Shown piece after piece: positions 2,600 to 44,882 of a stretch of 53,216 nucleotides of DNA (the stretch's first letter is position 1; each line of letters begins with the position of its first letter). The notes beneath the pieces were generated by a model. The model was not told the DNA's origin, made no database searches, and was given only the letters and a program-made list of their open reading frames with translations. Position numbers and translations under genes: made by a program. The stretch comes from Candidatus Woesearchaeota archaeon (GTDB lineage Archaea > Nanobdellota > Nanobdellia > Woesearchaeales > WJIZ01), in assembly GCA_018221205.1 (NCBI GenBank), contig JAAOYF010000028.1, positions 1-53,216 on the forward strand, in the 5' to 3' direction.

Positions 2600-3220
2600 A
2601 TGAAAAATCTTTTCATAGTCTTTGATGGAATGGACGGTACTGGGAAAAGCACACAGATTTCTATGCTTCACGATTATCTCTTCAAGAAGAATAAACGTGT
2701 CAGAATACTCACCACGAGAGAACCTACTTATGGGATCCATGGCGCAAAGATCAGGAAGAAGCTGAAGCAGCATAAGGATCCCTATAAGGACAGCAAAGAT
2801 CTTCTTGATCTCTATGTCAAAGACAGGAGAGACCATGTCAACAGGATGATCAAACCTTTCTTGCGCAAGGATGGTGAGAATGTCTCTATCGTCCTTTGTG
2901 ATCGCTATTATTACTCTACTATCGCTTATCAGCATGCACAAGGCATAGAGCTGAAGAAAACACTAAGCCTGAACAAGAGATTTCTCAAGCCAGATATCGC
3001 CATCATCTTGGATCTGCATCCCGAGACTGCCCTTAAGCGGATATCTAAAGCACGGGCTGTTGAAAAATTCGAGAAACTGGAATTCATGAAAAAATTACGT
3101 ACTAATTTTCTTCTGCTGCATGAACTCATCGATGATAATATGGTCATCATCGATACTTCTGGCAAAGAAGAGGAAGCATTTGAGAAGATCTGCAAAAAAG
3201 TCGATAAGCTTCTGAGATGA
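2600..3220 (+). CDS. tmk: thymidylate kinase
   Basis: P-loop DGMDGTGKST, TREP, CDRYYYSTIAYQ, PDIAIILD. Confidence 0.95.
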   Translation: MKNLFIVFDGMDGTGKSTQISMLHDYLFKKNKRVRILTTREPTYGIHGAKIRKKLKQHKDPYKDSKDLLDLYVKDRRDHVNRMIKPFLRKDGENVSIVLCDRYYYSTIAYQHAQGIELKKTLSLNKRFLKPDIAIILDLHPETALKRISKARAVEKFEKLEFMKKLRTNFLLLHELIDDNMVIIDTSGKEEEAFEKICKKVDKLLR

Positions 3221-3224
3221 GTCT

Positions 3225-3752
3225 ATGAAAACCAAGGCTATGATGTATGTCGCACTCTTTGCTGCGCTGACTGCAGCAGTCTCTCCTATAAGAATACCTT
3301 TAGGTTTCACTCCCGTTCCCATAACTCTGCAAACACTTATTGTGCTGTTGTCTGGCATGGTTTTAGGGAGGAACCTTGGGGCATTGTCCCAGATTGTATA
3401 CGTTATCGTCGGCCTGATAGGTCTGCCTGTCTTTTCAGGCGGCAGTTCTGGATTCGGTGTCCTCTTCGGACCTACTGGCGGGTTTCTGTTCGGGTTCATT
3501 GCCGCAGCTTATGTTGCGGGTTACCTTGCAGAGAGGAAAAGATCTTTTCTTACTCTTCTTATCTCAGGGGCGGGCGGGACGATCACCCTTTATGTTTTCG
3601 GTATTATCGGAGGGATGTTGACAACAGAATTAGCCCTTCCTGCTATCTTAGTAGGGTGGGTCGTGCCATTTATCATTAGCGATATCATCAAACTGACCGT
3701 TGCAGCAATGATAGCTTTCAAATTCGATACGAGAAAGTATCTTAAGCTATGA
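3225..3752 (+). CDS. bioY: biotin ECF transporter S component BioY
   Basis: PVPITLQT, GLPVFSGG, GPTGGFLFGF. Confidence 0.93.
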   Translation: MKTKAMMYVALFAALTAAVSPIRIPLGFTPVPITLQTLIVLLSGMVLGRNLGALSQIVYVIVGLIGLPVFSGGSSGFGVLFGPTGGFLFGFIAAAYVAGYLAERKRSFLTLLISGAGGTITLYVFGIIGGMLTTELALPAILVGWVVPFIISDIIKLTVAAMIAFKFDTRKYLKL

Positions 3753-4423
3753 TAGAAGTCAAGAATCTCAGCTACAGACTTAAAAAGCCTATTTTGCAGA
3801 ATATCTCTTTTTCTATAAAAGAGGGAATATCTGTTGCTCTTTTAGGACATAATGGTTCAGGCAAGACCACTCTCGTAAAGCATCTGAATGGGTTGCTGAA
3901 AGCACAAACTGGCTCTGTCAGTGTCGATGATCTTTCTACTGATTGGGAAGTGAAGAAGAATGTCGGCTTTCTTTTCCAGAATCCGGATGAGCAGCTGTTC
4001 AGTTCTATTGTTGAGGAAGATATCGCTTTCGGCCTTGAGAATCTGGGAGAGAAGCCTGCTGTGATGAAAGCCAAAGTGAAGAAGATCCTGAACAGTCTGC
4101 GTATCGAACAATTGGCTCAACAGGATGTCAATGAATTGTCTTTCGGACAGAAGCAGCTTGTCGCACTTGCCGGAGTGTTGGTGATGGAGCCAAAGTATCT
4201 TATCCTTGATGAGCCTTTCTCTCTGCTTGACCCAAAGAATAAATCAAATCTGATATCAATCCTTCATTCGCTCAAGACTACACTCATCTTAGTCACGAAT
4301 AATCTTGATGATCTGGCCTTGGTCGAGGAGGTTATCCTCTTAAAACAGGGAAAGATCGTCTTTAAAGGGAAGAGATCCAGATTGTCGAAACAGATCCTGA
4401 AGAAGGCTGATATGATTGGTTAA
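3749..4423 (+). CDS. ecfA: ECF transporter ATPase (EcfA/BioM)
   Basis: GHNGSGKTT, FQNPDEQ, LSFGQKQ, LILDEP. Confidence 0.92.
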   Translation: MIEVKNLSYRLKKPILQNISFSIKEGISVALLGHNGSGKTTLVKHLNGLLKAQTGSVSVDDLSTDWEVKKNVGFLFQNPDEQLFSSIVEEDIAFGLENLGEKPAVMKAKVKKILNSLRIEQLAQQDVNELSFGQKQLVALAGVLVMEPKYLILDEPFSLLDPKNKSNLISILHSLKTTLILVTNNLDDLALVEEVILLKQGKIVFKGKRSRLSKQILKKADMIG

Positions 4424-5102
4424 TATCCTGCAGAGATTGGACCCACGATCAAAGATCATCTTACTGTTGTTGCTCAGCATCTATCTCTTTGCCATTACGA
4501 GCAGCTCCTCATTTCTTCTGCTGAGTGCTTTTGGCATACTACTCTTAATCATCACTAAACTCCCTCTCGGTTACTTGCTGAAGAGGCTTTTTCCGTTCCT
4601 GTTCTTCTTTGTCTTTATCCTGGCAGCGCATTATGCAAATATTCTAGCTGGATTATTCACTATATGGAGATTTCTGCTGCTTGTCTTGTTTGCAGCTGTT
4701 CTACTCTGGACCACTACTATAAGCGAGATGGTCTCTGCGTTGGAGAAATTGCTTTCGCCTTTACGCTTTTTCGTCTCTCCACGGGACATCTCCCTCATGG
4801 TGGCTACAGCTGTCCGGTTCATCCCTCTTCTTATGCATGAGACGTCACAGCTGAGAGATGCGCAGAAATCGAGAGGATTAAAGAAATGGAGATTTAGGCA
4901 CGTAAGCCAATTAGTGCAGGGCATGCTGAAGAAGACCTTTCTGAAAGCAGGGGCAATTGCAGATGCATTGGATGCCCGATGCTATCGTGATAAAAATTAT
5001 ACAAGATATACTATACTGCAGATAAGCTATCGAGATATTGTAGCTGCTTTTGTTATTGCTCTTGTTCTGGTCATAGATATCCTAAAGATTCAATATCTTT
5101 GA
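4416..5102 (+). CDS. ecfT: ECF transporter T component (EcfT/BioN)
   Basis: LDPRSK start, RFIP, AQKSRG and DARC Arg motifs. Confidence 0.9.
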   Translation: MVNILQRLDPRSKIILLLLLSIYLFAITSSSSFLLLSAFGILLLIITKLPLGYLLKRLFPFLFFFVFILAAHYANILAGLFTIWRFLLLVLFAAVLLWTTTISEMVSALEKLLSPLRFFVSPRDISLMVATAVRFIPLLMHETSQLRDAQKSRGLKKWRFRHVSQLVQGMLKKTFLKAGAIADALDARCYRDKNYTRYTILQISYRDIVAAFVIALVLVIDILKIQYL

Positions 5103-5466
5103 TGACTCCAGGGACAAACTTGAATTCTTTTATCTGTTCTTTTGTTATCCATCGATAATCAGAATTCTCATGGCATAGCTCGATGTTGTCAGAAGAAGCT
5201 TTGCAGAGATAGACCATGACCAGGAATCTTCTCCCTTCTCTTACCTCTGTCTGGACCAGCTTTCCTTCAGTCTCTAATTCAACATCCAGGCCAGTCTCTT
5301 CTTTCGCTTCTCTCAATACTGCATCTTCTGTTGATTCGAATTCATCCAGGTATCCTGAGCAGAATGACCAATGGCCTGGAAAGTATCTATCATCATCAGC
5401 TTTTTTGAGGATGAGCATCTTATTGTTATATCTGATGATACCGGTCACGACAAAATAGGTCTTCAT
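5071..5466 (-). CDS. NUDIX hydrolase
   Basis: Nudix box GYLDEFESTEDAVLREAKEETGL. Confidence 0.92.
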   Translation of the reverse strand: MKTYFVVTGIIRYNNKMLILKKADDDRYFPGHWSFCSGYLDEFESTEDAVLREAKEETGLDVELETEGKLVQTEVREGRRFLVMVYLCKASSDNIELCHENSDYRWITKEQIKEFKFVPGVIKDIESLGYL

Positions 5467-5527
5467 TAGAAGAAGCAAAAAAGCTGAGCAATATAAAATT
5501 ATGCTTTAATAAAAATCGACCCCTTTT

Positions 5528-5659
5528 TCAGTCAAAATCTAAAAATAATTCGTCCATCTCATGATGTGAGACGATCTTCTTGTTCAAGACAGCCATCTTC
5601 GGCTTCTTGCCGTGGGTTCCACGGACCATATCAAATTCAAATTCATCTTCTGGCATCAT
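5528..5659 (-). CDS. 43-aa microprotein MMPEDEFEFDMVRGTHGKKPKMAVLNKKIVSHHEMDELFLDFD
   Basis: ATGA overlap with the upstream ORF stop, GGGTGG SD-like motif; manual translation. Confidence 0.6.
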   Translation of the reverse strand: MMPEDEFEFDMVRGTHGKKPKMAVLNKKIVSHHEMDELFLDFD

Positions 5660-5856
5660 TCCCACCCAACTACTTGCTCTCTGATCGACAGGCGTTCAAC
5701 CTGCGCCAGTCTCCGCTCCAATTCCTTGATCCTGATAGATTGCTCCTTGACGCGGACGTTCAGATTCCTCATCTGGTTCCAGCTATCATATTTCATAAAA
5801 TCGATATCTCTCCTCACTTGAGCAAAAGAGTTCTGAAGCTTTCTCTGTGAAATCAT
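5656..5856 (-). CDS. 66-aa coiled-coil protein
   Basis: SD GGAGGT upstream, heptad pattern, abuts neighbouring ORFs. Confidence 0.75.
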   Translation of the reverse strand: MISQRKLQNSFAQVRRDIDFMKYDSWNQMRNLNVRVKEQSIRIKELERRLAQVERLSIREQVVGWE

Positions 5857-5985
5857 TTAGACAACCTCCAAGTTCTCATAGTATTCTTTTCTGTGCATCT
5901 CTTTCTCTATCAAACGGGCTCTTTCCTCTTTAGTGAGGCTTCTTCCAGCCACTTTCTCGTCCATGAGTTTTTCTGTCAATGCCAT
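5857..5985 (-). CDS. 42-aa microprotein MALTEKLMDEKVAGRSLTKEERARLIEKEMHRKEYYENLEVV
   Basis: Stop TAA abuts the next ATG; charged helical peptide; manual translation. Confidence 0.6.
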   Translation of the reverse strand: MALTEKLMDEKVAGRSLTKEERARLIEKEMHRKEYYENLEVV

Positions 5986-5987
5986 TT

Positions 5988-6046
5988 TGAAAAAAGTGCC
6001 CAGGGCAATTTCGAGGGGATGAAGAAGAAAGTACCCCGGACTCTTA
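5988..6046 (-). promoter_or_regulatory. structured 5' leader or small RNA hairpin followed by a U-tract
   Basis: GUCCGGGGUA pairs with UGCCCUGGGC (3 G-U pairs), CU-rich loop, then UUUUUU; TATA TTTATATA at 6085-6078. Confidence 0.5.
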
Positions 6047-6136
6047 GTGTTATTACTGGAAAGTAGAAATCAGGTCATATATAAATGTTTCGCTTTATAG
6101 CTACTGCTAAGTGATGAAAGTATAGAACGAAGGATA

Positions 6137-6673
6137 TTACCCTACCCTTCTAACTGGCGCTTCTCGGGGCATATCACTAATTCCGTAAGTCTTCACGGTG
6201 CTTTCTCGGAAATAATTGCCGATAATATGGATGAGATCAGGTGTTGTTAGGATAACAACCTCACGGGTAGTAATGTCGGGTTCGACTTCTGCCAAGCCCT
6301 CAAGAATCTCCCTTCTTACATCATCTTCAGTGTGATATGCATCATCCATTCTCGCTGCTTTTCTCAGCTGCATCAACGTCGCGAGAGCAACAACAGGACG
6401 ATATATCCCTTGTTCAGACGTACCTAATGCAACAATTCTATCAACATATTTTGATCGTCCTTGATCATCTCTCGGGAAGTCTCCAATTTGATGATCTGCA
6501 TAACCATGCATATAATCTGCAAGGAAGAAAGGATTGTCATACCTCCTTATATCCCTGGCCAAAGATTTTTTGAGTGCTTCGGGAAGATCATTTGCAACCA
6601 AATACACAACTCGGTCTATTGTAGAATCAGAAGGTGCTCCTCTCACGCGCTCTGCTAGTGCAGTCTCTGGCAT
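6137..6673 (-). CDS. hypothetical protein (no recognisable family)
   Basis: 178-aa ORF with TTTAAATA upstream. Confidence 0.7.
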   Translation of the reverse strand: MPETALAERVRGAPSDSTIDRVVYLVANDLPEALKKSLARDIRRYDNPFFLADYMHGYADHQIGDFPRDDQGRSKYVDRIVALGTSEQGIYRPVVALATLMQLRKAARMDDAYHTEDDVRREILEGLAEVEPDITTREVVILTTPDLIHIIGNYFRESTVKTYGISDMPREAPVRRVG

Positions 6674-38625: not shown

Positions 38626-39207
38626 CTAGAAATGTGCTCGGCCTATCTTGAGCGAGAGAATAAATTTCCTCGCAGTCTCGATCTGCTTGTCATGTGTGAA
38701 GTTTCTATCTTCGTCCATGACTTTTCCCATCCGTTTGCATATGTGGTGGAAGGGCTTTCCTGCATGTTGAACCCATTGCCTACCGATGAAAGAGACTGGG
38801 TCTGACAAAGGCTCAGGATTGACTTCTTCAGGATGCAATGGGGTTGCTACACCATATTCAAAAACTGCCATCAGCTTTGGAAGAGCTTCAATGAGGAAGC
38901 CTGCATTGTCTCTATAATGCGTAGGTAGAAATCTTGCCATTATATTCCTGACTTCATGCAATTGTGTGACAAGCATTTGACTGAATTGTCCTTTATGAAC
39001 CTGAAGCAAGCTGCCACTTACTTCATCATAGTGTTTATCGAAACTCTTATCGAATAATCTTGCCAATCTACCTTTCTCATCAATTCTCAGTTCAGCATGT
39101 ACAAGAAATATATGATTAAAGTCATCTTTCGCTGCTTCAAAATCTAATTTTTGAACTATCTTTCTAACTTTGGGTTCTTTTACTTTCTGCTCTGCTTCGA
39201 TGGCCAT
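38626..39207 (-). CDS. hypothetical protein coupled to cmk
   Basis: TAATG overlap with the cmk stop; no motif recognised. Confidence 0.7.
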   Translation of the reverse strand: MAIEAEQKVKEPKVRKIVQKLDFEAAKDDFNHIFLVHAELRIDEKGRLARLFDKSFDKHYDEVSGSLLQVHKGQFSQMLVTQLHEVRNIMARFLPTHYRDNAGFLIEALPKLMAVFEYGVATPLHPEEVNPEPLSDPVSFIGRQWVQHAGKPFHHICKRMGKVMDEDRNFTHDKQIETARKFILSLKIGRAHF

Positions 39208-39737
39208 TACTTTCTCACTTTCTTCACTATTTTCTCTATCGCTTGCTCTGGTGTTATGCTTGTTGTGTCGATGATGAGGTCGAAATCACTTTTTGTAGGA
39301 AAATCGATGCCGTAATATTCTTTATACCTGATATTCTCAGACCTCATCCTTTCTTTGACATATTTTTCTGCCTCTTTCTGGCTCTTGTATCTCTCTTCTG
39401 CCCTCCTATGGCCTATGATCCTCTTGGCAGCCTCTTTCAGATTGACATTCAAGAATATCTTATATGAATCCGGGATGAAATGAAACCCTAACCTGGAGTC
39501 GATGACAAAACCGTCATGCTCCTGTCCGAACTTCACTTGCTTTTCGTCTAATTCTTCATCGATGGTCGAGTCAACCTCAGCCCTCTTCGAGAGATCCATG
39601 ATGGTGAGATGTCTTTTCTTCGCGATCCCCCTCATAAAGTCGCCGATAGAAACAAATTCCAATCTCAGTTTTTTAGCGAGCATCTTGGAGACGGTGCTTT
39701 TGCCTGAACCCACAGCCCCCGATACCGTGATTTTCAT
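39207..39737 (-). CDS. cmk: cytidylate kinase (archaeal type)
   Basis: ITVSGAVGSGKST, DSRLG, RYKEYYGID, DLIIDT. Confidence 0.93.
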   Translation of the reverse strand: MKITVSGAVGSGKSTVSKMLAKKLRLEFVSIGDFMRGIAKKRHLTIMDLSKRAEVDSTIDEELDEKQVKFGQEHDGFVIDSRLGFHFIPDSYKIFLNVNLKEAAKRIIGHRRAEERYKSQKEAEKYVKERMRSENIRYKEYYGIDFPTKSDFDLIIDTTSITPEQAIEKIVKKVRK

Positions 39738-39818
39738 AATTTTGCCAGAAGAAATATTCTTTATAAATGTTGTTAATTTTTGAGCTGTTAAGTTAGCGTC
39801 ATCTGAGGTATAAAAAAA

Positions 39819-40016
39819 TTAATCCATAAAATATTTTGAATATTTATTTTTTAGATGTGATAACTTTTCTTTATCAATCTGCTCTCCGAATTTCTTTATG
39901 ACAGTTAGATATGCATCTACTCTACCTAAATTACTTTCTGGTGCCGAATTATAATTTTCAATAACTGCTTCAAATTGTTCAACACAGTATTCAAAAATGT
40001 CTTTTGCATCTACCAT
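39819..40016 (-). CDS. 65-aa hypothetical cargo protein
   Basis: SD AGGAGGA; directly downstream of the AbrB gene. Confidence 0.7.
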   Translation of the reverse strand: MVDAKDIFEYCVEQFEAVIENYNSAPESNLGRVDAYLTVIKKFGEQIDKEKLSHLKNKYSKYFMD

Positions 40017-40025
40017 TTATTCCTC

Positions 40026-40187
40026 CTAATCCCTCTCAATAATCAGCTTTCCTTTCTTAACTTCAGCTTCCAGTTCTTCCCCTTCCTTCCAGCCCAATTT
40101 CTCTATGGTGCTAGGCTTTACAACAATAACATACTTAGCATATTCCTTATCCCCTACTTTTCGAGAAAGCTGTTTTTGGAGCTTCAT
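40026..40187 (-). CDS. 53-aa AbrB/MazE/SpoVT-family DNA-binding protein (not in ORF track)
   Basis: MKLQKQLSRKVGDKEYAKYVIVVKPSTIEKLGWKEGEELEAEVKKGKLIIERD; LGWxxGxxL motif. Confidence 0.85.
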   Translation of the reverse strand: MKLQKQLSRKVGDKEYAKYVIVVKPSTIEKLGWKEGEELEAEVKKGKLIIERD

Positions 40188-40195
40188 AATGGGTA

Positions 40196-40232
40196 TAGGT
40201 ACCTACTAGTATAAATAATTTTCGGTACCGAA
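40196..40232 (-). promoter_or_regulatory. abrB promoter bracketed by GGTACC palindromes
   Basis: TAGGTACCTA (40196-40205) and TTCGGTACCGAA (40221-40232) flank TTTATACT. Confidence 0.75.
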
Positions 40233-40321
40233 GGCTTTTACAAAGAGATAATTGAACTGTAGAGTAAAAGTCAGGAAAAGCTAAATTAATAAATAAATAT
40301 TTTTATTTTTAGAAAACATGT

Positions 40322-40489
40322 TTAATGTTTTGCTAATTCTTTAAATAATACTTCGTCTTCTTTAAACACTATTTCTTTAGCTACTTTAACCAATTCTAAT
40401 AACTTTTTATCGTTTTTAGAAATTTCATAAACTTCTTTTTCTGTAAGTTTATATGTATCCTTTTTTTCTTCATTTTTCATTTTCATCAT
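40322..40489 (-). CDS. 55-aa putative antitoxin-like peptide downstream of the Doc gene
   Basis: Overlaps the toxin stop; ends ..EDEVLFKELAKH, resembling Phd-type neutralising helices. Confidence 0.6.
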   Translation of the reverse strand: MMKMKNEEKKDTYKLTEKEVYEISKNDKKLLELVKVAKEIVFKEDEVLFKELAKH

Positions 40490-41090
40490 TTTCCAGAGTT
40501 ATAGTAACAAAAACACCATTTAAATAATTTGCTATATCTTTATCTTCAATCATAACACAATTCCTATCCAACCATTCTTTTATTTCTTGAAAAGTTACTT
40601 TACTTTCATATTTTGCGACCTCTAAAATAAAAGTAACTGCTTCATTAAATTGTATCCTCAAATGGCATTTATTGACTAACATAAAGATCTTTGCTATTGC
40701 ATAAGCCACTCTTTTATTACCATCTGTAAAGTAATGACGTTTAGCAAATTCATTCAAGGCAAAGGTTCCTATACTAGTGGGATTTCTTTGGTTCTTATAT
40801 TGATGGTTTATTAGTTTATAAGTTGAATTGTATATGCCTCCTCTATCCCTAATTCCATGTTCTCCACCACTTAATTCAATTATAGTGTCGTGAACCCTTA
40901 TAATCATCTCTTCCATTTTTAGTACAATGCCTTTGGATATTCTTTTTCTAGGTTTATTCCAATAAGGACTATGGCATTTTGGGTTTGGACAAGAATTGGG
41001 GTTTTGTTCTTTTCTTCTTTTCCAAGTATGGTAACATCTAAAACAAAATAGTATATTATCATTATTAACCATATGTGTATTGTTAACCAT
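40470..41090 (-). CDS. Doc/Fic-family protein with N-terminal zinc ribbon
   Basis: HYFTDGNKRVA Doc-type motif, HD..I..SGG..GIRD; CFRC..W...CPNPKC.SPYW. Confidence 0.9.
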   Translation of the reverse strand: MVNNTHMVNNDNILFCFRCYHTWKRRKEQNPNSCPNPKCHSPYWNKPRKRISKGIVLKMEEMIIRVHDTIIELSGGEHGIRDRGGIYNSTYKLINHQYKNQRNPTSIGTFALNEFAKRHYFTDGNKRVAYAIAKIFMLVNKCHLRIQFNEAVTFILEVAKYESKVTFQEIKEWLDRNCVMIEDKDIANYLNGVFVTITLENDENEK

Positions 41091-41132
41091 ATGTGGTTGG
41101 AAATAACCATATACATTTAAATCTTTCTATTG

Positions 41133-41166
41133 TATATTGTATGGTTATATCTAACCATACAATATA
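41133..41166. promoter_or_regulatory. perfect 15-bp inverted repeat upstream of the doc promoter
   Basis: TATATTGTATGGTTA-TATC-TAACCATACAATATA; further TAACCATA copies at 41066, 41084 and 41104. Confidence 0.75.
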
Positions 41167-41167
41167 T

Positions 41168-41263
41168 TAGCTACCTATCCTTTATAAGTATTTCGGTACC
41201 TAAAACTATACTTCTCAATAGATATGATTAGGTACCTAAGTATTTATATACGTTAGGTACCTA
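41168..41263. promoter_or_regulatory. divergent promoter pair with four GGTACC-type palindromes
   Basis: Cores at 41170 (GCTACC), 41195, 41231 and 41256; each pair is 25 bp apart around a TATA box. Confidence 0.75.
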
Positions 41264-41272
41264 CTAATACAT

Positions 41273-42169
41273 ATGAAACAAACAACCAAATGTAAGCATT
41301 GTGGCGAAAGCCACTACATAAAAAAGGGATTTCGTAAAACAGAAAATCGTGGCAAAATTCAGAAATATAAGTGCTTAGATTGTGGAATGTATTTTACTAG
41401 TGATGAAGGCTTTTATAGAATGAGAAACTCTGAAAAGAAGATAACTCAAGCCATAGACCTTTACTTCTCTAATCTCTCAAGCAGAAAGGTAAGAAACTTC
41501 TTTAGAAGGCATTTAGACCACAATGCAAGCCATATAACAGTATTGGATTGGTGTAGAAGGTATGTTCTAAAGGTACAGAAGTATGTGAATAAACTACACC
41601 CAGAATTAAGTGGAGAGTTCTATGCAGATGAAACAGAGATACCAAGAGGATGTAACACTAAAAGAAAAGGTGGCGATAAATTCTGGTGTGCGGTTGATTG
41701 GGGAACAAGATACATCAACGCTACTCTTTATTCACCTAATAATCAGAGTGTAGACGAAGCGGTTGAATTTTTGAAGAAAACAACAAAACACAGAAAGCCA
41801 AAATTTATCCAAACAGATGCAGCACAATTTTATCCAAAAGCAATGAAGAAACTTTTTAGTTCTTGTATCCCTCATGAAACTACATTCGGAAAAAGAACGA
41901 CAGTAGAACATCGTATTAACAACGTCAGAAAGACAGGAAAACATAATGTAAGGATTGAAACCGTATTCTCGAAAATTAAGGACAGAGTTGATGATTTTCG
42001 AGGGTTGAAAGCGTTATGGAGTGCCCCTATCCTCATGGAAGGCATTATCATACAACACAACTGGATTGAAGCCCATACAACAACAGGAAGGATACCCTCA
42101 GAACTGGCAGGGATGAAGATTGATACAGGGGCTAATCGGTGGTTAGGGATGATTAAATCTTCCTTATAA
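41273..42169 (+). CDS. IS6-family-like DDE transposase with N-terminal zinc ribbon
   Basis: CKHC..CLDC, HTH (LSSRKV..TVLDW), ADET, QTD, NVRIE, HN..H..P. Confidence 0.9.
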   Translation: MKQTTKCKHCGESHYIKKGFRKTENRGKIQKYKCLDCGMYFTSDEGFYRMRNSEKKITQAIDLYFSNLSSRKVRNFFRRHLDHNASHITVLDWCRRYVLKVQKYVNKLHPELSGEFYADETEIPRGCNTKRKGGDKFWCAVDWGTRYINATLYSPNNQSVDEAVEFLKKTTKHRKPKFIQTDAAQFYPKAMKKLFSSCIPHETTFGKRTTVEHRINNVRKTGKHNVRIETVFSKIKDRVDDFRGLKALWSAPILMEGIIIQHNWIEAHTTTGRIPSELAGMKIDTGANRWLGMIKSSL

Positions 42170-43052
42170 TTCTTAATTCCGTAAATTTTTTCTGTTTTTT
42201 CAGTTTTTCTAGCTCCTTTAAAATTATATCATTAATCTTTTTATTAAACTTTGAATTTTTTGAACTGACCTCTAACTTATCTTCTGCTATAGTAATCCAA
42301 TTAGCATAGGAATCTCCAAACATCCAAAAAAGGAAAGGAGAGTAGATTCTTATTTTACAAAAGTTACTATCATAGTCAAAAGAATCTTTAATTTTTAACT
42401 TCTTGTTCCCGAAAAAGCCCTTCTTGCTAAAAGACTTTCTAAAAATTGCTAAAAGGTCCCTATTTTTAGCTAATTTAAACCTATAAGTGTAGATATTTTT
42501 TAACAAATCTTTATTATAATGGAAATGAAGAGCTACGGAAATTGTAATTAGAATAAGCCCAACAAGCGCCATTGAATAAAGTATAATGTTATTTGAAAGT
42601 AGGTTAATTGCTTGAATTTCATATGGAAGTCTTTCTGTTAGTGTGAGTGCTGAAAAATTTACTTCATTCCTATTTAGAACAGTTGTATAAGCTTGTGTTT
42701 CACTAATCTTCAACAGAAATTGTAATCCTGCTTCAACCATAAGGGAAATCCCAATACCTAAAAGAATTCCTGTGAAGAAAGTATTAATTTTTCTCTTTTT
42801 TTGCTGTTCATCAGGAAGCGTTAAATGAATATCAGTAACCTTATTTTTAATATCATCCAAATCCTTCTTAATTTCGTTTGTGTTAGTTGCCACGAATATC
42901 CTCAATATGTTCACTAGACATACTAAGGTATTATACCCCCCTATTTTAATAATTATCTCATTTACATATATAAATCCAGCGAGTATAGCAAAAAAAGACC
43001 ATATCAATAAAAAAGGCAACAAGAAGTAAGTTATAACAACCCAGTTCTCCAT
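42153..43052 (-). CDS. cargo membrane protein, 2-3 TM (start may be GTG 42893)
   Basis: AT-rich ORF with hydrophobic segments; GAGGAT precedes GTG 42893. Confidence 0.7.
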   Translation of the reverse strand: MENWVVITYFLLPFLLIWSFFAILAGFIYVNEIIIKIGGYNTLVCLVNILRIFVATNTNEIKKDLDDIKNKVTDIHLTLPDEQQKKRKINTFFTGILLGIGISLMVEAGLQFLLKISETQAYTTVLNRNEVNFSALTLTERLPYEIQAINLLSNNIILYSMALVGLILITISVALHFHYNKDLLKNIYTYRFKLAKNRDLLAIFRKSFSKKGFFGNKKLKIKDSFDYDSNFCKIRIYSPFLFWMFGDSYANWITIAEDKLEVSSKNSKFNKKINDIILKELEKLKKQKKFTELRIIRKI

Positions 43053-43080
43053 CCGTAGGTGACGTTTACTTAACAGCCCA

Positions 43081-43863
43081 TTAATTTTTCAGACCAGGAT
43101 TTCCGCAGATCCTGATGGCAGTGACGAAGAGAATCAAGTAGAGCGTGATCGCGATCCAGGAGAAATAAACTCCCACCAGGGGTGATTGGACAATAAGATA
43201 GCTCTTGAAGTCAAACGGAATAGTAAGAACCTCGATGAGGATCATGATGGTCGCAGTATGGAACGAAAGAGAGAGCACTTGGGGGAGAGTCACGATGTTC
43301 TTCATCGGCTTGGCGAAGGCATAGAAGAGAAATGCCAGGGGATAGATGATCAGGACGTATTTGACCATATAGGTGAAGAAGAGGAAGACAAAAACACTGG
43401 GCAAGAGGAGCGTGAAGATCAGGATAGTAATTCTTTTTGAGCTTTCCCTGTCAGCGGTGAAATCATATTCACCGAGATCAATGGTCCCTTCCTGGAACCC
43501 TATATCATAGAACAGCCTTTCGTTCGTCAGGAGGAGCACTTCTGTGTCGATCTGTTTGGTATCGGTCGTGTCCAACGTTATAATAGGATTAGTATTGGGC
43601 AGGGAGACGGGCTGGGCAGTCTCGAAATCTGCCTTGATCTTCAGTTCTGCGATGTTCAAGAGAGCCTGATCGAGCTCAGTCTTTATCAGCAGCATCTTCG
43701 GAGCAGCGATGACCAGCATGAGCAGTAATGCGCTAAAGAGCACTGCGAGGAAATATGTTATTGCACTGGAGACTCTCCTCTCCCCTATATAGATATAATA
43801 CCTCGGATGCAGACTCTTCAGGATAAGAAAGATAAAATGCTTCAGCTTTGATCTAACGCCCAT
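43081..43863 (-). CDS. multi-TM membrane protein (DUF1189-like layout)
   Basis: TM, extracellular domain, then 4 TM; stop codon lies inside the TSD. Confidence 0.75.
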   Translation of the reverse strand: MGVRSKLKHFIFLILKSLHPRYYIYIGERRVSSAITYFLAVLFSALLLMLVIAAPKMLLIKTELDQALLNIAELKIKADFETAQPVSLPNTNPIITLDTTDTKQIDTEVLLLTNERLFYDIGFQEGTIDLGEYDFTADRESSKRITILIFTLLLPSVFVFLFFTYMVKYVLIIYPLAFLFYAFAKPMKNIVTLPQVLSLSFHTATIMILIEVLTIPFDFKSYLIVQSPLVGVYFSWIAITLYLILFVTAIRICGNPGLKN

Positions 43864-44882
43864 GTATCTATGACCTCTTTTTCTAATGCTATGATATCAT
43901 TTACCTTGTTTATATTTCTTTCGTCTATCATCTCCTTGAAGAGGACAGAGCTCTGGCGGAATTTTCCTGCCTGCTCCTTATCGTCCAGCCAGTCTGCCAG
44001 CGCTTTCCGGGTGATGAAGCCCTGTTTCAGCTGCTGCTCTGATAGCTCCCTTTTCAATACATTATGGCTGAGGAGGATATCTTTCCTTATGGTGACTTTT
44101 GCCTCTTCCTCGTCTATGGGATCACTTTCCCTCAAGACATACCAGGTGAACAGAGGGCCATAGTCATTCACCTCACTCAGCCATCCGTCGTAGAAATCCT
44201 GGGGAGTGATATCAAGATAAGAAGCGCCGGCCAAGGTGGGGTTGTTGATCTTGATATTCTGATCGTAGCCTACAACCGGAACGAAGATAGGGTCATGGAA
44301 CTTCTCTTTCTCCTGCTGGTATCTCCGCAGCAGTTCGTGATGGAGGTAAAAACGGTCGACTGCGACTATAGGCACTGCATTGGATGAGGTTATCAGCTGG
44401 AGATAGACGATGCTGCCCTGGCCTTTTATGGGGGTGGCTTTGAGATCGTATTTTGCATAGAACTGCCTCAGCTTGCTATTCAGCTCTGCACTTGCGTAGA
44501 ATGCCTTGAATCCATAAAGGGACAGGCGGCTGCCCAAGAATTCTTCCAGGGAGGCACCTTTATCATCCAGCTTAGCAGCCCCGGACAATGCGACGATAAA
44601 AGAATAGGGAAGATCAGGATTGAATCTCCTCATAGATACTGCAGTGGCAGCCACGAAATCAATGCACCCATTACATCCATCATAGATGTTCTCTACAGCC
44701 TTCACGGTATGGCTTGCTGGTGTCTCGGTCCTCAGCTTGAATTCAGGAAGATCTGTTGTCTCTTTTTCCTCAAATGTTCCGGCTGTGGAATTGAAGTCTT
44801 TTACACTCAACTGTACGGCTTGCGGAGTCTCATAGATGCAGCCAGCGAGAATGATAAGTGCAAGTAAAAAGAGAGTTTTCAT
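43842..44882 (-). CDS. lipoprotein with papain/C39-like fold signature, probably non-catalytic
   Basis: Lipobox IILAGC; PIVAVD, FVPVVGYD..I.INNP, F..GW. Confidence 0.6.
   Translation of the reverse strand: MKTLFLLALIILAGCIYETPQAVQLSVKDFNSTAGTFEEKETTDLPEFKLRTETPASHTVKAVENIYDGCNGCIDFVAATAVSMRRFNPDLPYSFIVALSGAAKLDDKGASLEEFLGSRLSLYGFKAFYASAELNSKLRQFYAKYDLKATPIKGQGSIVYLQLITSSNAVPIVAVDRFYLHHELLRRYQQEKEKFHDPIFVPVVGYDQNIKINNPTLAGASYLDITPQDFYDGWLSEVNDYGPLFTWYVLRESDPIDEEEAKVTIRKDILLSHNVLKRELSEQQLKQGFITRKALADWLDDKEQAGKFRQSSVLFKEMIDERNINKVNDIIALEKEVIDTWALDQS

Follow-up and report, generated by a model that had tools for sequence, protein, structure and literature searches.

A probable IS6-like unit transposon with a candidate AbrB-type repressor and variable cargo in a woesearchaeal genome, and its relatives in DPANN archaea

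The window considered here is a stretch of 53,216 nucleotides from a Candidatus Woesearchaeota archaeon (assembly GCA_018221205.1, contig JAAOYF010000028.1), and between two of its host genes lies an insertion of 3300 bp, at positions 39781-43080, whose six open reading frames (ORFs) comprise one DDE transposase and five more. The flanking host genes encode a cytidylate kinase, cmk (39207-39737; PF13189), the start of which at 39737 is 35 bp from the left target-site duplication, and a 260-aa membrane protein (43081-43863). Considered as a whole, the insertion is very probably a complete unit transposon of a DPANN-wide group of IS6-like elements that combine an AbrB-like regulator with variable cargo. 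As judged from sequence comparison, the core of this group consists of inverted ends of about 24 nt, a zinc-finger DDE transposase and, encoded upstream of the latter, a protein of 50-60 aa with a predicted AbrB/MazE fold. In the window these features, and the sites associated with them, are arranged as follows.

39773-39780, no strand: left copy of the target-site duplication, TTAATTTT, 8 bp, the same as 43081-43088
39781-39804, plus strand: left terminal inverted repeat (IRL), TGAGCTGTTAAGTTAGCGTCATCT, 24 nt; the motif also bounds related elements
40026-40187, minus strand: small protein of the AbrB/MazE fold, 53 aa; core gene, candidate repressor
40196-40226, no strand: A/T-rich TATA-like box with a GGTACC site on either side, close upstream of the gene for the AbrB-like protein; putative operator and promoter
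41190-41272, plus strand: transposase promoter region, with GGTACC at -78, -42 and -17 (41195, 41231, 41256), the last two bracketing TTTATATA
41273-42169, plus strand: transposase, 298 aa, with an N-terminal CxxC…CxxC zinc finger and an IS6/IS240-type DDE domain
43057-43080, minus strand: right terminal inverted repeat (IRR), reverse complement TGGGCTGTTAAGTAAACGTCACCT, 24 nt
43081-43088, no strand: right copy of the target-site duplication, TTAATTTT, 8 bp, overlapping the stop codon of the 260-aa host gene

Both the ends and the duplications are observed directly in the sequence, and a repeat finder reports the same pair of ends. Specifically, the two arms are identical at 20 of 24 positions, carry CTGTT at positions 5-9 and have TG at their tips, and the same 8-bp sequence stands on either side, in agreement with the inverted repeats and exact duplication reported in the initial annotation. 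The span given there, 39773-43088, is correct for the element together with both duplications but not for the element proper; likewise, its description of one DDE transposase with five passengers is right as to the six ORFs and the single transposase, but the gene for the AbrB-like protein belongs to the family core, which leaves four passengers in this copy. Within the 1.28-Mb source genome, matches without mismatch to an 18-nt core of the ends are confined to the two ends of the element, and the two extra matches gained at three mismatches do not rise above a reversed-pattern control; on the contig, searching with this core at up to three mismatches revealed no third end inside the element. 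Base composition also sets the insertion apart, the GC fraction being 0.24-0.37 within the element (about 30% overall) and 0.42-0.47 in the flanks (about 43%). The element is single-copy in its genome, where a search for second copies gave only a 33%-identical transposase paralogue on a different contig. An Rfam scan over 39000-44000 returned nothing at E ≤0.1, and a promoter and terminator scan gave 18 promoter-like sites where 15.7 were expected, the model being bacterial and the host archaeal.

Consistent with insertion into a formerly uninterrupted locus, removal of the element with one duplication leaves a spacer of 43 bp between the host genes, and the unoccupied gene order is itself observed directly: all six other genomes searched from that taxonomic family (G001-G006) have cmk immediately after their homologue of the 260-aa gene, in the same order and with gaps of about 25-160 bp. 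This synteny bears out both the proposal that taking out the element restores a clean junction and the expectation that relatives would show the site unoccupied. Among the contigs of one run (X1) no joint skipping the element and none indicative of a cointegrate is listed, contigs being apt to drop rare variants, and a contig of this run spans the occupied left junction without differences; no RNA run was listed as containing the stretch. In the same run, positions 42825-43106 of the window are matched by a contig of ~24x coverage, compared with about 3-5x elsewhere, whose match is confined to the right end and the beginning of the mem299 gene and shows 8-10 differences; this contig probably represents a related element in a more abundant organism of the sample.

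Sequence comparisons place the transposase as a divergent branch of zinc-finger IS6-like transposases. The protein matches the Pfam domain DDE_Tnp_IS240 (PF13610) at 45.2 bits (cutoff 27), a domain matched by all 13 aligned family members, and its best NCBIfam model is the IS6 equivalog NF033587, at 68.8 bits and thus below the curated cutoff of 125. Classification with hidden Markov models (HMMs), as proposed in the initial annotation, therefore finds IS6 nearest, yet leaves the protein outside that cutoff. The window transposase does not pass the IS1 equivalog NF033558 (34 bits, cutoff 100) and contains no Pfam IS1 or IS1595 DDE domain at E ≤0.1; against the IS1/IS1595 zinc-domain model NF050000 (cutoff 28) it scores 22.6 bits, while the distant relatives P0131 (29.9 bits), P0138 (37.4) and P0142 (32.1) pass. 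Assignment to a divergent IS6-like branch is favoured because IS6 is the top NCBIfam model in ten of ten relatives tested, and because P0142, which is 32% identical to the window transposase, reaches 142 bits against the IS6 cutoff of 125 in addition to passing the zinc-domain model.

Conservation within the family follows the same lines. An alignment of the window transposase with 11 homologues and the in-genome paralogue holds invariant the zinc-finger residues C7, C10, C34 and C37 together with D119, D182, E229, K236 and R238, and E229, K236 and R238 are invariant or nearly so across the family alignment. Counted from E229, F stands at +3, K at +7 and R at +9, F232 being kept in all but the distant paralogue; 'E--F---K-R' has been described as the signature of archaeal IS6-like transposases (PMC6807381; this and the other articles named here are cited from those portions of their text that were available). 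For IS6 elements, the ends are stated to be 15-20 bp long, to start with GG and to contain cTGTt internally (PMC7986276). The initial annotation had singled out the non-GG tips, and the window ends do bear TG; the feature is not unusual, however, as many archaeal IS6-like members are without GG tips (PMC6807381).

Relatives of the transposase are numerous. A scan of 1.84 billion representatives gave 1117 clusters at E ≤1e-3 and 34 at E ≤1e-30, and a word-indexed protein search gave 726 matches, the best 120 of the 726 being 63-79% identical; the few matches with a named source came from Woesearchaeota or an 'archaeon' and were annotated as DDE-type, IS1 or IS1/IS6 transposases. A sequence search of solved structures returned no transposase relative and two chance-level zinc-finger matches (E 0.28 and 0.58), and no relative was found in viral contigs with six peptide patterns.

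To what extent the remainder of the element is shared can be read from 58 related loci, which are labelled Woese-, Pace-, Nano-, Aenigm- or Nanohalarchaeota, 'archaeon', or Methanosarcinales (third-party assemblies). All derive from metagenome-assembled genomes (MAGs), one genome per species, with taxon labels as given by the depositors; the counts below cover loci that happened to hold both ends, and related elements are not independent samples. The motif TGAGCTGTWAAGT… flanks the transposase in this family, with ends that begin TGAGCTGT(A/T)AAGT. Over 476 kb of loci, the 18-nt end motif with four mismatches allowed gave 84 matches, compared with 2 for a reversed control, and 82 of the 84 point inward on either side of the transposase. 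Of the 58 loci, 40 show a left end, 40 a right end and 30 both, many of them being truncated where the contig stops. Perfect 8-bp direct repeats stand directly outside the ends in 28 of the 30 loci with both. The initial annotation had proposed examining homologues in DPANN MAGs for inverted repeats and duplications, and the same combination does recur. Among the 60 ends of these 30 loci the tips are TG in 56, TA in three and GG in one, and the internal motif of the family is CTGT(A/T). Lengths of the sister elements run from 1419 to 6788 bp, with an arm of 282-4186 bp upstream of the transposase and one of 80-3006 bp downstream. For the counts of cargo and of AbrB-like genes, the two loci with mismatched duplications (L084, L100) were excluded, leaving 28 loci and, with the window, 29 elements; where two right-end candidates were present (L072, L101), the candidate with a matching duplication was kept.

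Several loci display arrangements of their own. In the sister genus (G001), whose assembly breaks within elements of this group, one locus (L030) has an element end succeeded at once by an AbrB-like gene and the beginning of the transposase, a Doc module of the kind described below being absent, and two distinct right arms carry small membrane-protein ORFs (L022/L044; L028). A further locus of that genome (L052; contig C4:1-2798) has an end and an AbrB-like gene followed by ORFs of 84 and 160 aa instead of the transposase; as in the window, the extra genes are placed between the regulator and the expected position of the transposase. In L073, a decayed element (2763-4279) and an intact one (4280-6322) lie tail-to-head. 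The decayed copy, the right repeat of which ends at 4271, retains a 27-codon transposase remnant, a 91-aa ORF and a homologue of the window membrane protein, and the 8 bp between the two elements are the intact copy's own duplication, so that insertion may target an existing end. Two right ends in the same orientation occur 30-39 bp apart in L072 (6741 and 6780) and L101 (5554 and 5584), and could be the trace of an end duplication or of cargo capture via the outer end. Finally, exact end motifs with no transposase match within 1.5 kb on either side (L035 and L041 of G001; L036 of G004) could be solo ends or remnants of lost elements.

Linkage of the transposase to the AbrB-like gene is a matter of direct observation. 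Using an HMM built from relatives of the 53-aa protein, a homologue was found in 24 of the 29 elements, always upstream of the transposase and in either orientation, which substantiates the AbrB linkage that the initial annotation had suggested examining. The window protein itself scores 21.7 bits against PF04014 (cutoff 24.7; E 1.9e-4) and 18.9 bits against TIGR01439 (cutoff 28.3); of the 24 family members, 18 match PF04014 at E ≤0.01, the best at 3.2e-7. An AlphaFold2 model of the protein, built from a 24-row alignment as a monomer, in which a swapped dimer would not be visible, has a predicted local distance difference test (pLDDT) score of 91.8, and the top five Foldseek matches in the PDB are MazE and AbrB chains (probability 0.93-1.00, template modelling score 0.51-0.60, E 0.054-0.32), with further fold matches to SpoVT and to two AbrB-like proteins of Sulfolobus plasmid-viruses.

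In most elements, two to five sites resembling TT(C/A)GGTACC(G/T)AA precede the transposase start, the last two being ~25 nt apart and bracketing a TTTATATA box, from the end of which it is about 25-30 nt to the ATG. GGTAC is found 9.3 times per kb within this 170-nt region and 0.29 times per kb in the rest of the elements, and the sites vary by subgroup (GGTACC, GATACC, GGAACC/GGTTCC, GGCACC and others). When the box was left out of consideration, a direct 10-mer repeat (≥8/10) at a spacing of 24-29 nt was present upstream of the transposase in 21 of the 24 AbrB-positive elements and in none of the five AbrB-negative ones, as well as in 45 of 1160 shuffled controls. A stricter test that demanded the TTTATATA box was passed by 16 of the 24, the eight missed having variant boxes. 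Because the AbrB-like gene co-occurs with repeated sites that bracket TATA boxes, a geometry expected of promoter control, the protein is probably the repressor of the element, acting on its own promoter and on that of the transposase.

Observations at other loci touch upon the same small-regulator position. A second zinc-finger IS6-like transposase, 33% identical to that of the window, is encoded in the source genome (G000, contig C28:69537-73412) at L002:1462-2385, and beside it, on the minus strand at L002:1162-1317, a divergent 51-aa zinc-ribbon ORF resembling the N-terminus of the window Doc protein stands in the place of the AbrB-like gene; this replacement suggests that the regulator slot is modular. 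The ends of the L002 element were not definable by eye or with an inverted-repeat tool. Two AbrB-negative elements, L073 and L080, share a conserved stretch ~90 nt upstream of the transposase match, with an in-frame ATG ahead of the usual start, and in these two an extended N-terminus of the transposase may take the place of the AbrB-like gene with its operators.

The remaining features of the window copy are its passengers, together with a repeat region next to one of them.

39819-40016, minus strand: p65, 65 aa, 9 bp downstream of the AbrB-like gene; passenger, possibly no real gene
40322-40489, minus strand: p55, 55 aa, overlapping the Doc 3' end by 20 nt; putative antitoxin
40470-41090, minus strand: zinc-ribbon-Doc toxin-like protein (Fic/Doc fold), 206 aa; the start may be the second Met, at 41072
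41061-41166, no strand: direct repeats of the AACCATA type with a perfect 15-nt palindrome, situated upstream of the Doc start and extending over it; putative operator of the Doc module
42153-43052, minus strand: mem299, predicted membrane protein, 299 aa, with hydrophobic stretches judged by eye; passenger

Two of these passengers, Doc and p55, appear from sequence comparison to form an independent two-gene module that was acquired by the transposon. The Doc protein passes TIGR01550 (50.5 bits, cutoff 38.65) and Pfam Fic PF02661 (31.1 bits, cutoff 24), and residues H119, F121 and D123-G124-N125-K126-R127 of its Fic loop, which conform to the Doc motif H-x-F-x-D-(A/G)-N-K-R, are invariant in three of three homologues. 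Its N-terminus is a CxxC…CPxC-SPYW-(N)-x-PR zinc ribbon with no Pfam family for that part. Among 301 genomes of the order (G000 included), 47 contained some match to Doc; full-length relatives outside the window genome occur in only two, G146 (70% identity) and G061 (48%). In all three full-length loci a small ORF ending …EDxxF(L)KELAK(H/Y) overlaps the Doc 3' end, and the two outside the window, one of which (L123) is 73% identical at the nucleotide level, have no transposase or end motif within 1.5 kb. It is because two of the three full-length pairs stand away from any transposase that the module is regarded as independent. Within the window it lies between the AbrB-side sites and the transposase-side sites, so that neither core promoter is broken. 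The initial annotation's toxin-antitoxin-like module is accordingly present in this copy, where a Doc model is passed and a partner is encoded, but it is not a trait of the family, only one further Fic-domain gene having been found among 87 cargo ORFs of the sister elements.

Structural modelling is in keeping with a pairing of the two proteins. A model of Doc residues 52-206 in complex with p55 scored 0.89, the best of three controls scoring 0.02; this mark is reached by 58 of 80 solved complexes and 2 of 110 mismatched pairs, counts that are approximate for alignments of three rows. The runs share at least 83% of contacts, the pLDDT of the partner is at least 68, and modelled p55 residues 26-55 contact Doc residues 124 and 126-127 of the Fic-motif loop. 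No ORF precedes Doc on its strand before the transposase promoter, where an upstream Phd/YefM-type antitoxin might be sought, and p55 matches no family. The model leads us to infer that p55 acts as a Phd-like neutralising helix without a DNA-binding domain. More speculatively, the zinc ribbon is likely the DNA-binding part, perhaps recognising the AACCATA repeats and the 15-nt palindrome. Elsewhere, about half of the 55 listed Doc matches are the zinc ribbon only, in free-standing ORFs of about 50-70 aa with the motif C-x2-C…C-P-x-C-x-S-P-Y-W-x-x-P-R (for example L130, L132-L134, L136 and L137), and most others are the Doc domain alone; some of the zinc-ribbon ORFs adjoin related transposases (L029, L082, L085, L117).

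Variability of cargo, like the ends, is directly observed: all 28 sister elements with matching duplications hold ORFs besides the transposase, and different genes are enclosed by the same ends from one element to the next, as the initial annotation had anticipated. Within the 87 non-core ORFs of at least 60 aa from these 28 elements, the commonest Pfam families are N6_N4 DNA methylase (11 ORFs), UPF0020 methyltransferase (6) and D12 methylase (4), followed by TrmB regulators (3) and MvaI/BcnI endonuclease (2), with single matches that include ThaI, Eco57I, an MmeI-type methylase, type III Res and Fic. Examples are an Eco57I/MmeI-like fusion in L067, a Res helicase with a methylase in L077, a methylase with an MvaI/BcnI endonuclease in L092, an LD-carboxypeptidase in L088 and a Fic-HTH protein in L107, and many ORFs have no family. 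A methylase cluster is present in eight elements and, with L067 and L077, at least 10 of the 28 carry genes of restriction-modification type. In the window, p65, in the left arm, has no Pfam or NCBIfam family and no similarity to the 64-aa ORF at the same position in L064; mem299, in the right arm, likewise has no Pfam or NCBIfam family and no usable Protein Atlas match, its one homologue (47% identity) lying just inside the right end of the decayed element in L073.

How such an element might operate can be outlined from its parts. The transposase would bind the ends and join them to a target cut with an 8-bp stagger. By analogy with IS6 (PMC7986276), transposition is probably replicative, by way of a cointegrate resolved by host recombination, cut-and-paste being equally compatible. 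The AbrB-like protein would occupy GGTACC-type sites around the TATA boxes of its own and the transposase promoters and so keep the transposase low, and the anatomy of these promoters suggests transcripts that are leaderless or nearly so. The Doc/p55 addiction module would probably penalise loss of the element. Cargo could be captured by insertion beside an existing end with subsequent use of the outer end, a route hinted at by the doubled right ends of L072 and L101 and the abutting elements of L073.

Several findings weigh against parts of this account. As regards family, the NCBIfam IS6 cutoff is missed, the sole match among 72,556 plasmids is an annotated IS6 transposase of 23% identity, and the element is tipped by TG instead of GG and is four times the usual IS6 length. 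As regards the group, matching duplications are wanting in two of the 30 elements with both ends. The window AbrB-like protein scores below the PF04014 cutoff, and the E-values of its fold matches are weak, at 0.054 or higher. The proposed binding of this protein to GGTACC derives from co-occurrence, and three AbrB-positive elements (L067, L076, L102) fail the box-free repeat test; by eye two of the three have sites, the A/T-rich site of L067 having been lost to a GC filter despite scoring 10/10 in the strict-box test, L076 having half-site variants and the search window for L102 having been shifted by a truncated transposase match. For Doc and p55, the model was possibly aided by solved Phd-Doc complexes and was built from alignments of only three rows, and the toxin-first gene order and the lack of a DNA-binding domain in p55 are atypical. 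Lastly, no transposition event was observed.

This last point leads to the possibility that the copy is a dead relic, inserted once, immobile and with decaying genes. The element could be inactive, as it is single-copy and its ends differ at 4 of 24 positions, and no form with an empty site appears among the contigs of one run, a weak indication given that contigs drop rare variants. All six ORFs are nevertheless open, the transposase retains every residue invariant in the family, the two copies of the duplication are identical and the layout of promoters and operators is undisturbed, such that we regard a relic as unlikely, if by no means negligible. Another possibility is that the mobile unit is smaller than 3.3 kb, consisting of the transposase with or without the AbrB-like gene, and that the Doc module or the mem299 gene is a mere neighbour or a separate nested element and does not move with it. 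The Doc-p55 module does stand alone in L123, in the window it lies between similar 21-nt promoter segments (40196-40216 and 41254-41274), and in the sister genus the AbrB-like gene and the transposase adjoin with the module absent. Against a smaller unit, there is only one pair of ends, with no internal match to the end core on the contig at up to three mismatches; it is the full 3.3 kb that the 8-bp duplication encloses and over which GC is lowered; the duplications of the 28 sister elements likewise enclose transposase and cargo; and a membrane-protein gene of the mem299 kind is also right-arm cargo inside the IRR of the decayed L073 element. On this evidence a smaller mobile unit is very improbable, and the complete 3.3-kb transposon is retained as the preferred interpretation.

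Two further alternatives concern the identity of its parts. The AbrB-like protein might be the MazE-type antitoxin of a second pair, with p65 as toxin, rather than a regulator of transposition, in keeping with a best Pfam match that is named MazE_antitoxin, with top fold matches to MazE chains, and with p65 following 9 nt after its gene on the same strand. An antitoxin would not, however, be expected from the evidence of the family: in the 24 of 29 elements that have it the gene lacks a conserved downstream partner and often abuts the inverted end, p65 has no detectable relative in the same position or in a toxin family, and the repeated sites occur on the transposase promoter as well as on the AbrB-like gene's own. 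This role is therefore given a poor chance, and that of a transposition repressor is preferred. Elements of the IS1 and IS1595 families, too, have zinc-finger transposases and 8-bp duplications, some groups with passenger genes, and the element might belong with them rather than with IS6. Weak scores of 34 bits for IS1 and 22.6 bits for the zinc domain of IS1/IS1595 agree with such a placement, as do the names 'IS1 family' or 'IS1/IS6 family transposase' that NCBI gives to some members. Yet the window transposase scores higher with IS6 than with IS1 (68.8 against 34), as do ten of ten relatives, PF13610 is passed where no Pfam IS1595 or IS1 DDE match appears at E ≤0.1, and both the signature after the catalytic glutamate and the CTGTT of the ends conform to IS6 (PMC6807381, PMC7986276), which makes a home in IS1 or IS1595 improbable and leaves the IS6-like assignment in place.

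Taken together, the data indicate that the element is real and complete and represents a new subgroup of IS6-like transposons, its activity and mechanism being inferred. Such an element is ordinary in principle, and its general kind is already known from the passenger-carrying IS1595 and IS1 groups of haloarchaea and methanogens; what is notable is the breadth of the group, the cargo it carries, and the candidate repressor dedicated to it, whose operator code is readable. In the portions of the literature available to us no description was found of this group, of an AbrB-type core gene in an insertion sequence, or of transposon-borne restriction-modification in DPANN archaea, with ISfinder/TnPedia and supplements, which may hold lists of insertion sequences, outside the search. 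In the available text of a 2026 survey of archaeal insertion sequences the word 'passenger' is absent and 'DPANN' appears twice, once in the title of a listed reference, and a review of archaeal integrated elements states, in the part available, that passenger-carrying transposons were not detected in archaea (PMC6563490). On the literature covered, the suggestion in the initial annotation of an undescribed family is plausible.

A broader proposal, to which we assign somewhat less than an even chance, is that these elements constitute an unrecognised DPANN-wide family, or deep IS6 subgroup, that represses itself; that what chiefly defines it as new is a dedicated AbrB-fold repressor, which changes together with its operator arrays between lineages; that such elements may be a main vehicle for restriction-modification, toxin-antitoxin and membrane-protein genes among the small genomes of Woese-, Pace- and Nanoarchaeota; and that addiction modules are preferentially lodged in the gap between the repressor and transposase promoters. 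Little is known of the ways in which DPANN archaea, host-dependent organisms with very small genomes, acquire genes and pass them on. A single window has led to hundreds of related transposases and to 28 cleanly bounded sister elements whose cargo is often of restriction-modification type, and thereby to a concrete route, open to testing, by which genes for defence and addiction could spread in these archaea. The small conserved candidate repressor and its readable operator code offer a compact and tractable case of self-control in an archaeal transposon, and the short ends and 298-aa transposase could be a candidate genetic tool for DPANN archaea, which have none.

Comparison with known systems reveals both similarities and differences. 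The element has the make-up of a transporter insertion sequence (tIS) or unit transposon, in that one pair of ends and a duplication enclose a transposase with unrelated genes, and the same ends enclose other cargo elsewhere. Passenger-carrying groups of IS1595 and IS1 (ISNha5, ISPna2+, ISNwi1+, ISMhu11), some of them in archaea (haloarchaea and methanogens), likewise combine a single zinc-finger DDE transposase and 8-bp duplications with passengers inside the ends. In contrast to them, the catalytic domain and ends here score as IS6-type, and we know of no AbrB-like core gene in those groups. With the Phd-Doc type II systems, the Doc module has in common the Doc/Fic fold and the loop H-x-F-x-D-G-N-K-R, over which the C-terminal helix of p55 is modelled; unlike in those systems, the partner gene lies downstream of the toxin gene, encodes no Phd/YefM or other known domain, and accompanies a toxin bearing an N-terminal zinc ribbon that is also found as free-standing small ORFs. 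In Tn3-family transposons with embedded toxin-antitoxin genes, the pair similarly sits between the regulator and transposase genes (Lima-Mendez et al. 2020, PMC7157771), and this position, as opposed to one among the distal passengers, suggests by analogy that the module stabilises the transposon itself. The element differs from these transposons in its unrelated transposase, its lack of a resolvase or res site and its archaeal host, as well as in its Doc-type toxin, 'doc' being absent from the available text of that survey (PMC7157771).

The closest resemblance is to IS6 (IS6/IS26), with which the element shares the PF13610 DDE domain, the 8-bp duplication and CTGTT near the tip. The E--F---K-R signature is held in common with archaeal IS6 clades (Harmer and Hall, 2019, PMC6807381), and the N-terminal zinc finger with the long clostridial members of clades h and i (Varani et al., 2021, PMC7986276), zinc fingers within IS6 being ascribed in the available account to clostridial clades only (PMC7986276). 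Setting the element apart from IS6 are the identity of ~23% to an annotated IS6 transposase and the missed NCBIfam cutoff; ends that are TG-tipped and 24 nt long rather than GG-tipped and 15-20 (PMC7986276); a size of 3300 bp with six ORFs, and of 1.4-6.8 kb among relatives, as against 0.7-0.9 kb with the transposase gene only; the dedicated AbrB-like gene and operator arrays; and hosts that are DPANN archaea, which go unmentioned in the available portions of the two accounts (PMC7986276, PMC6807381). A single IS6 member with a passenger gene is described, ISDsp3 of Dehalococcoides (PMC7986276), which like the window element combines a transposase of IS6 type with a passenger between a single pair of ends. 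Whereas ISDsp3 is, from that source, an isolated case with one hypothetical gene, the group described here is characterised by lineage-wide, multi-gene cargo on both sides of the transposase and by a conserved regulator.

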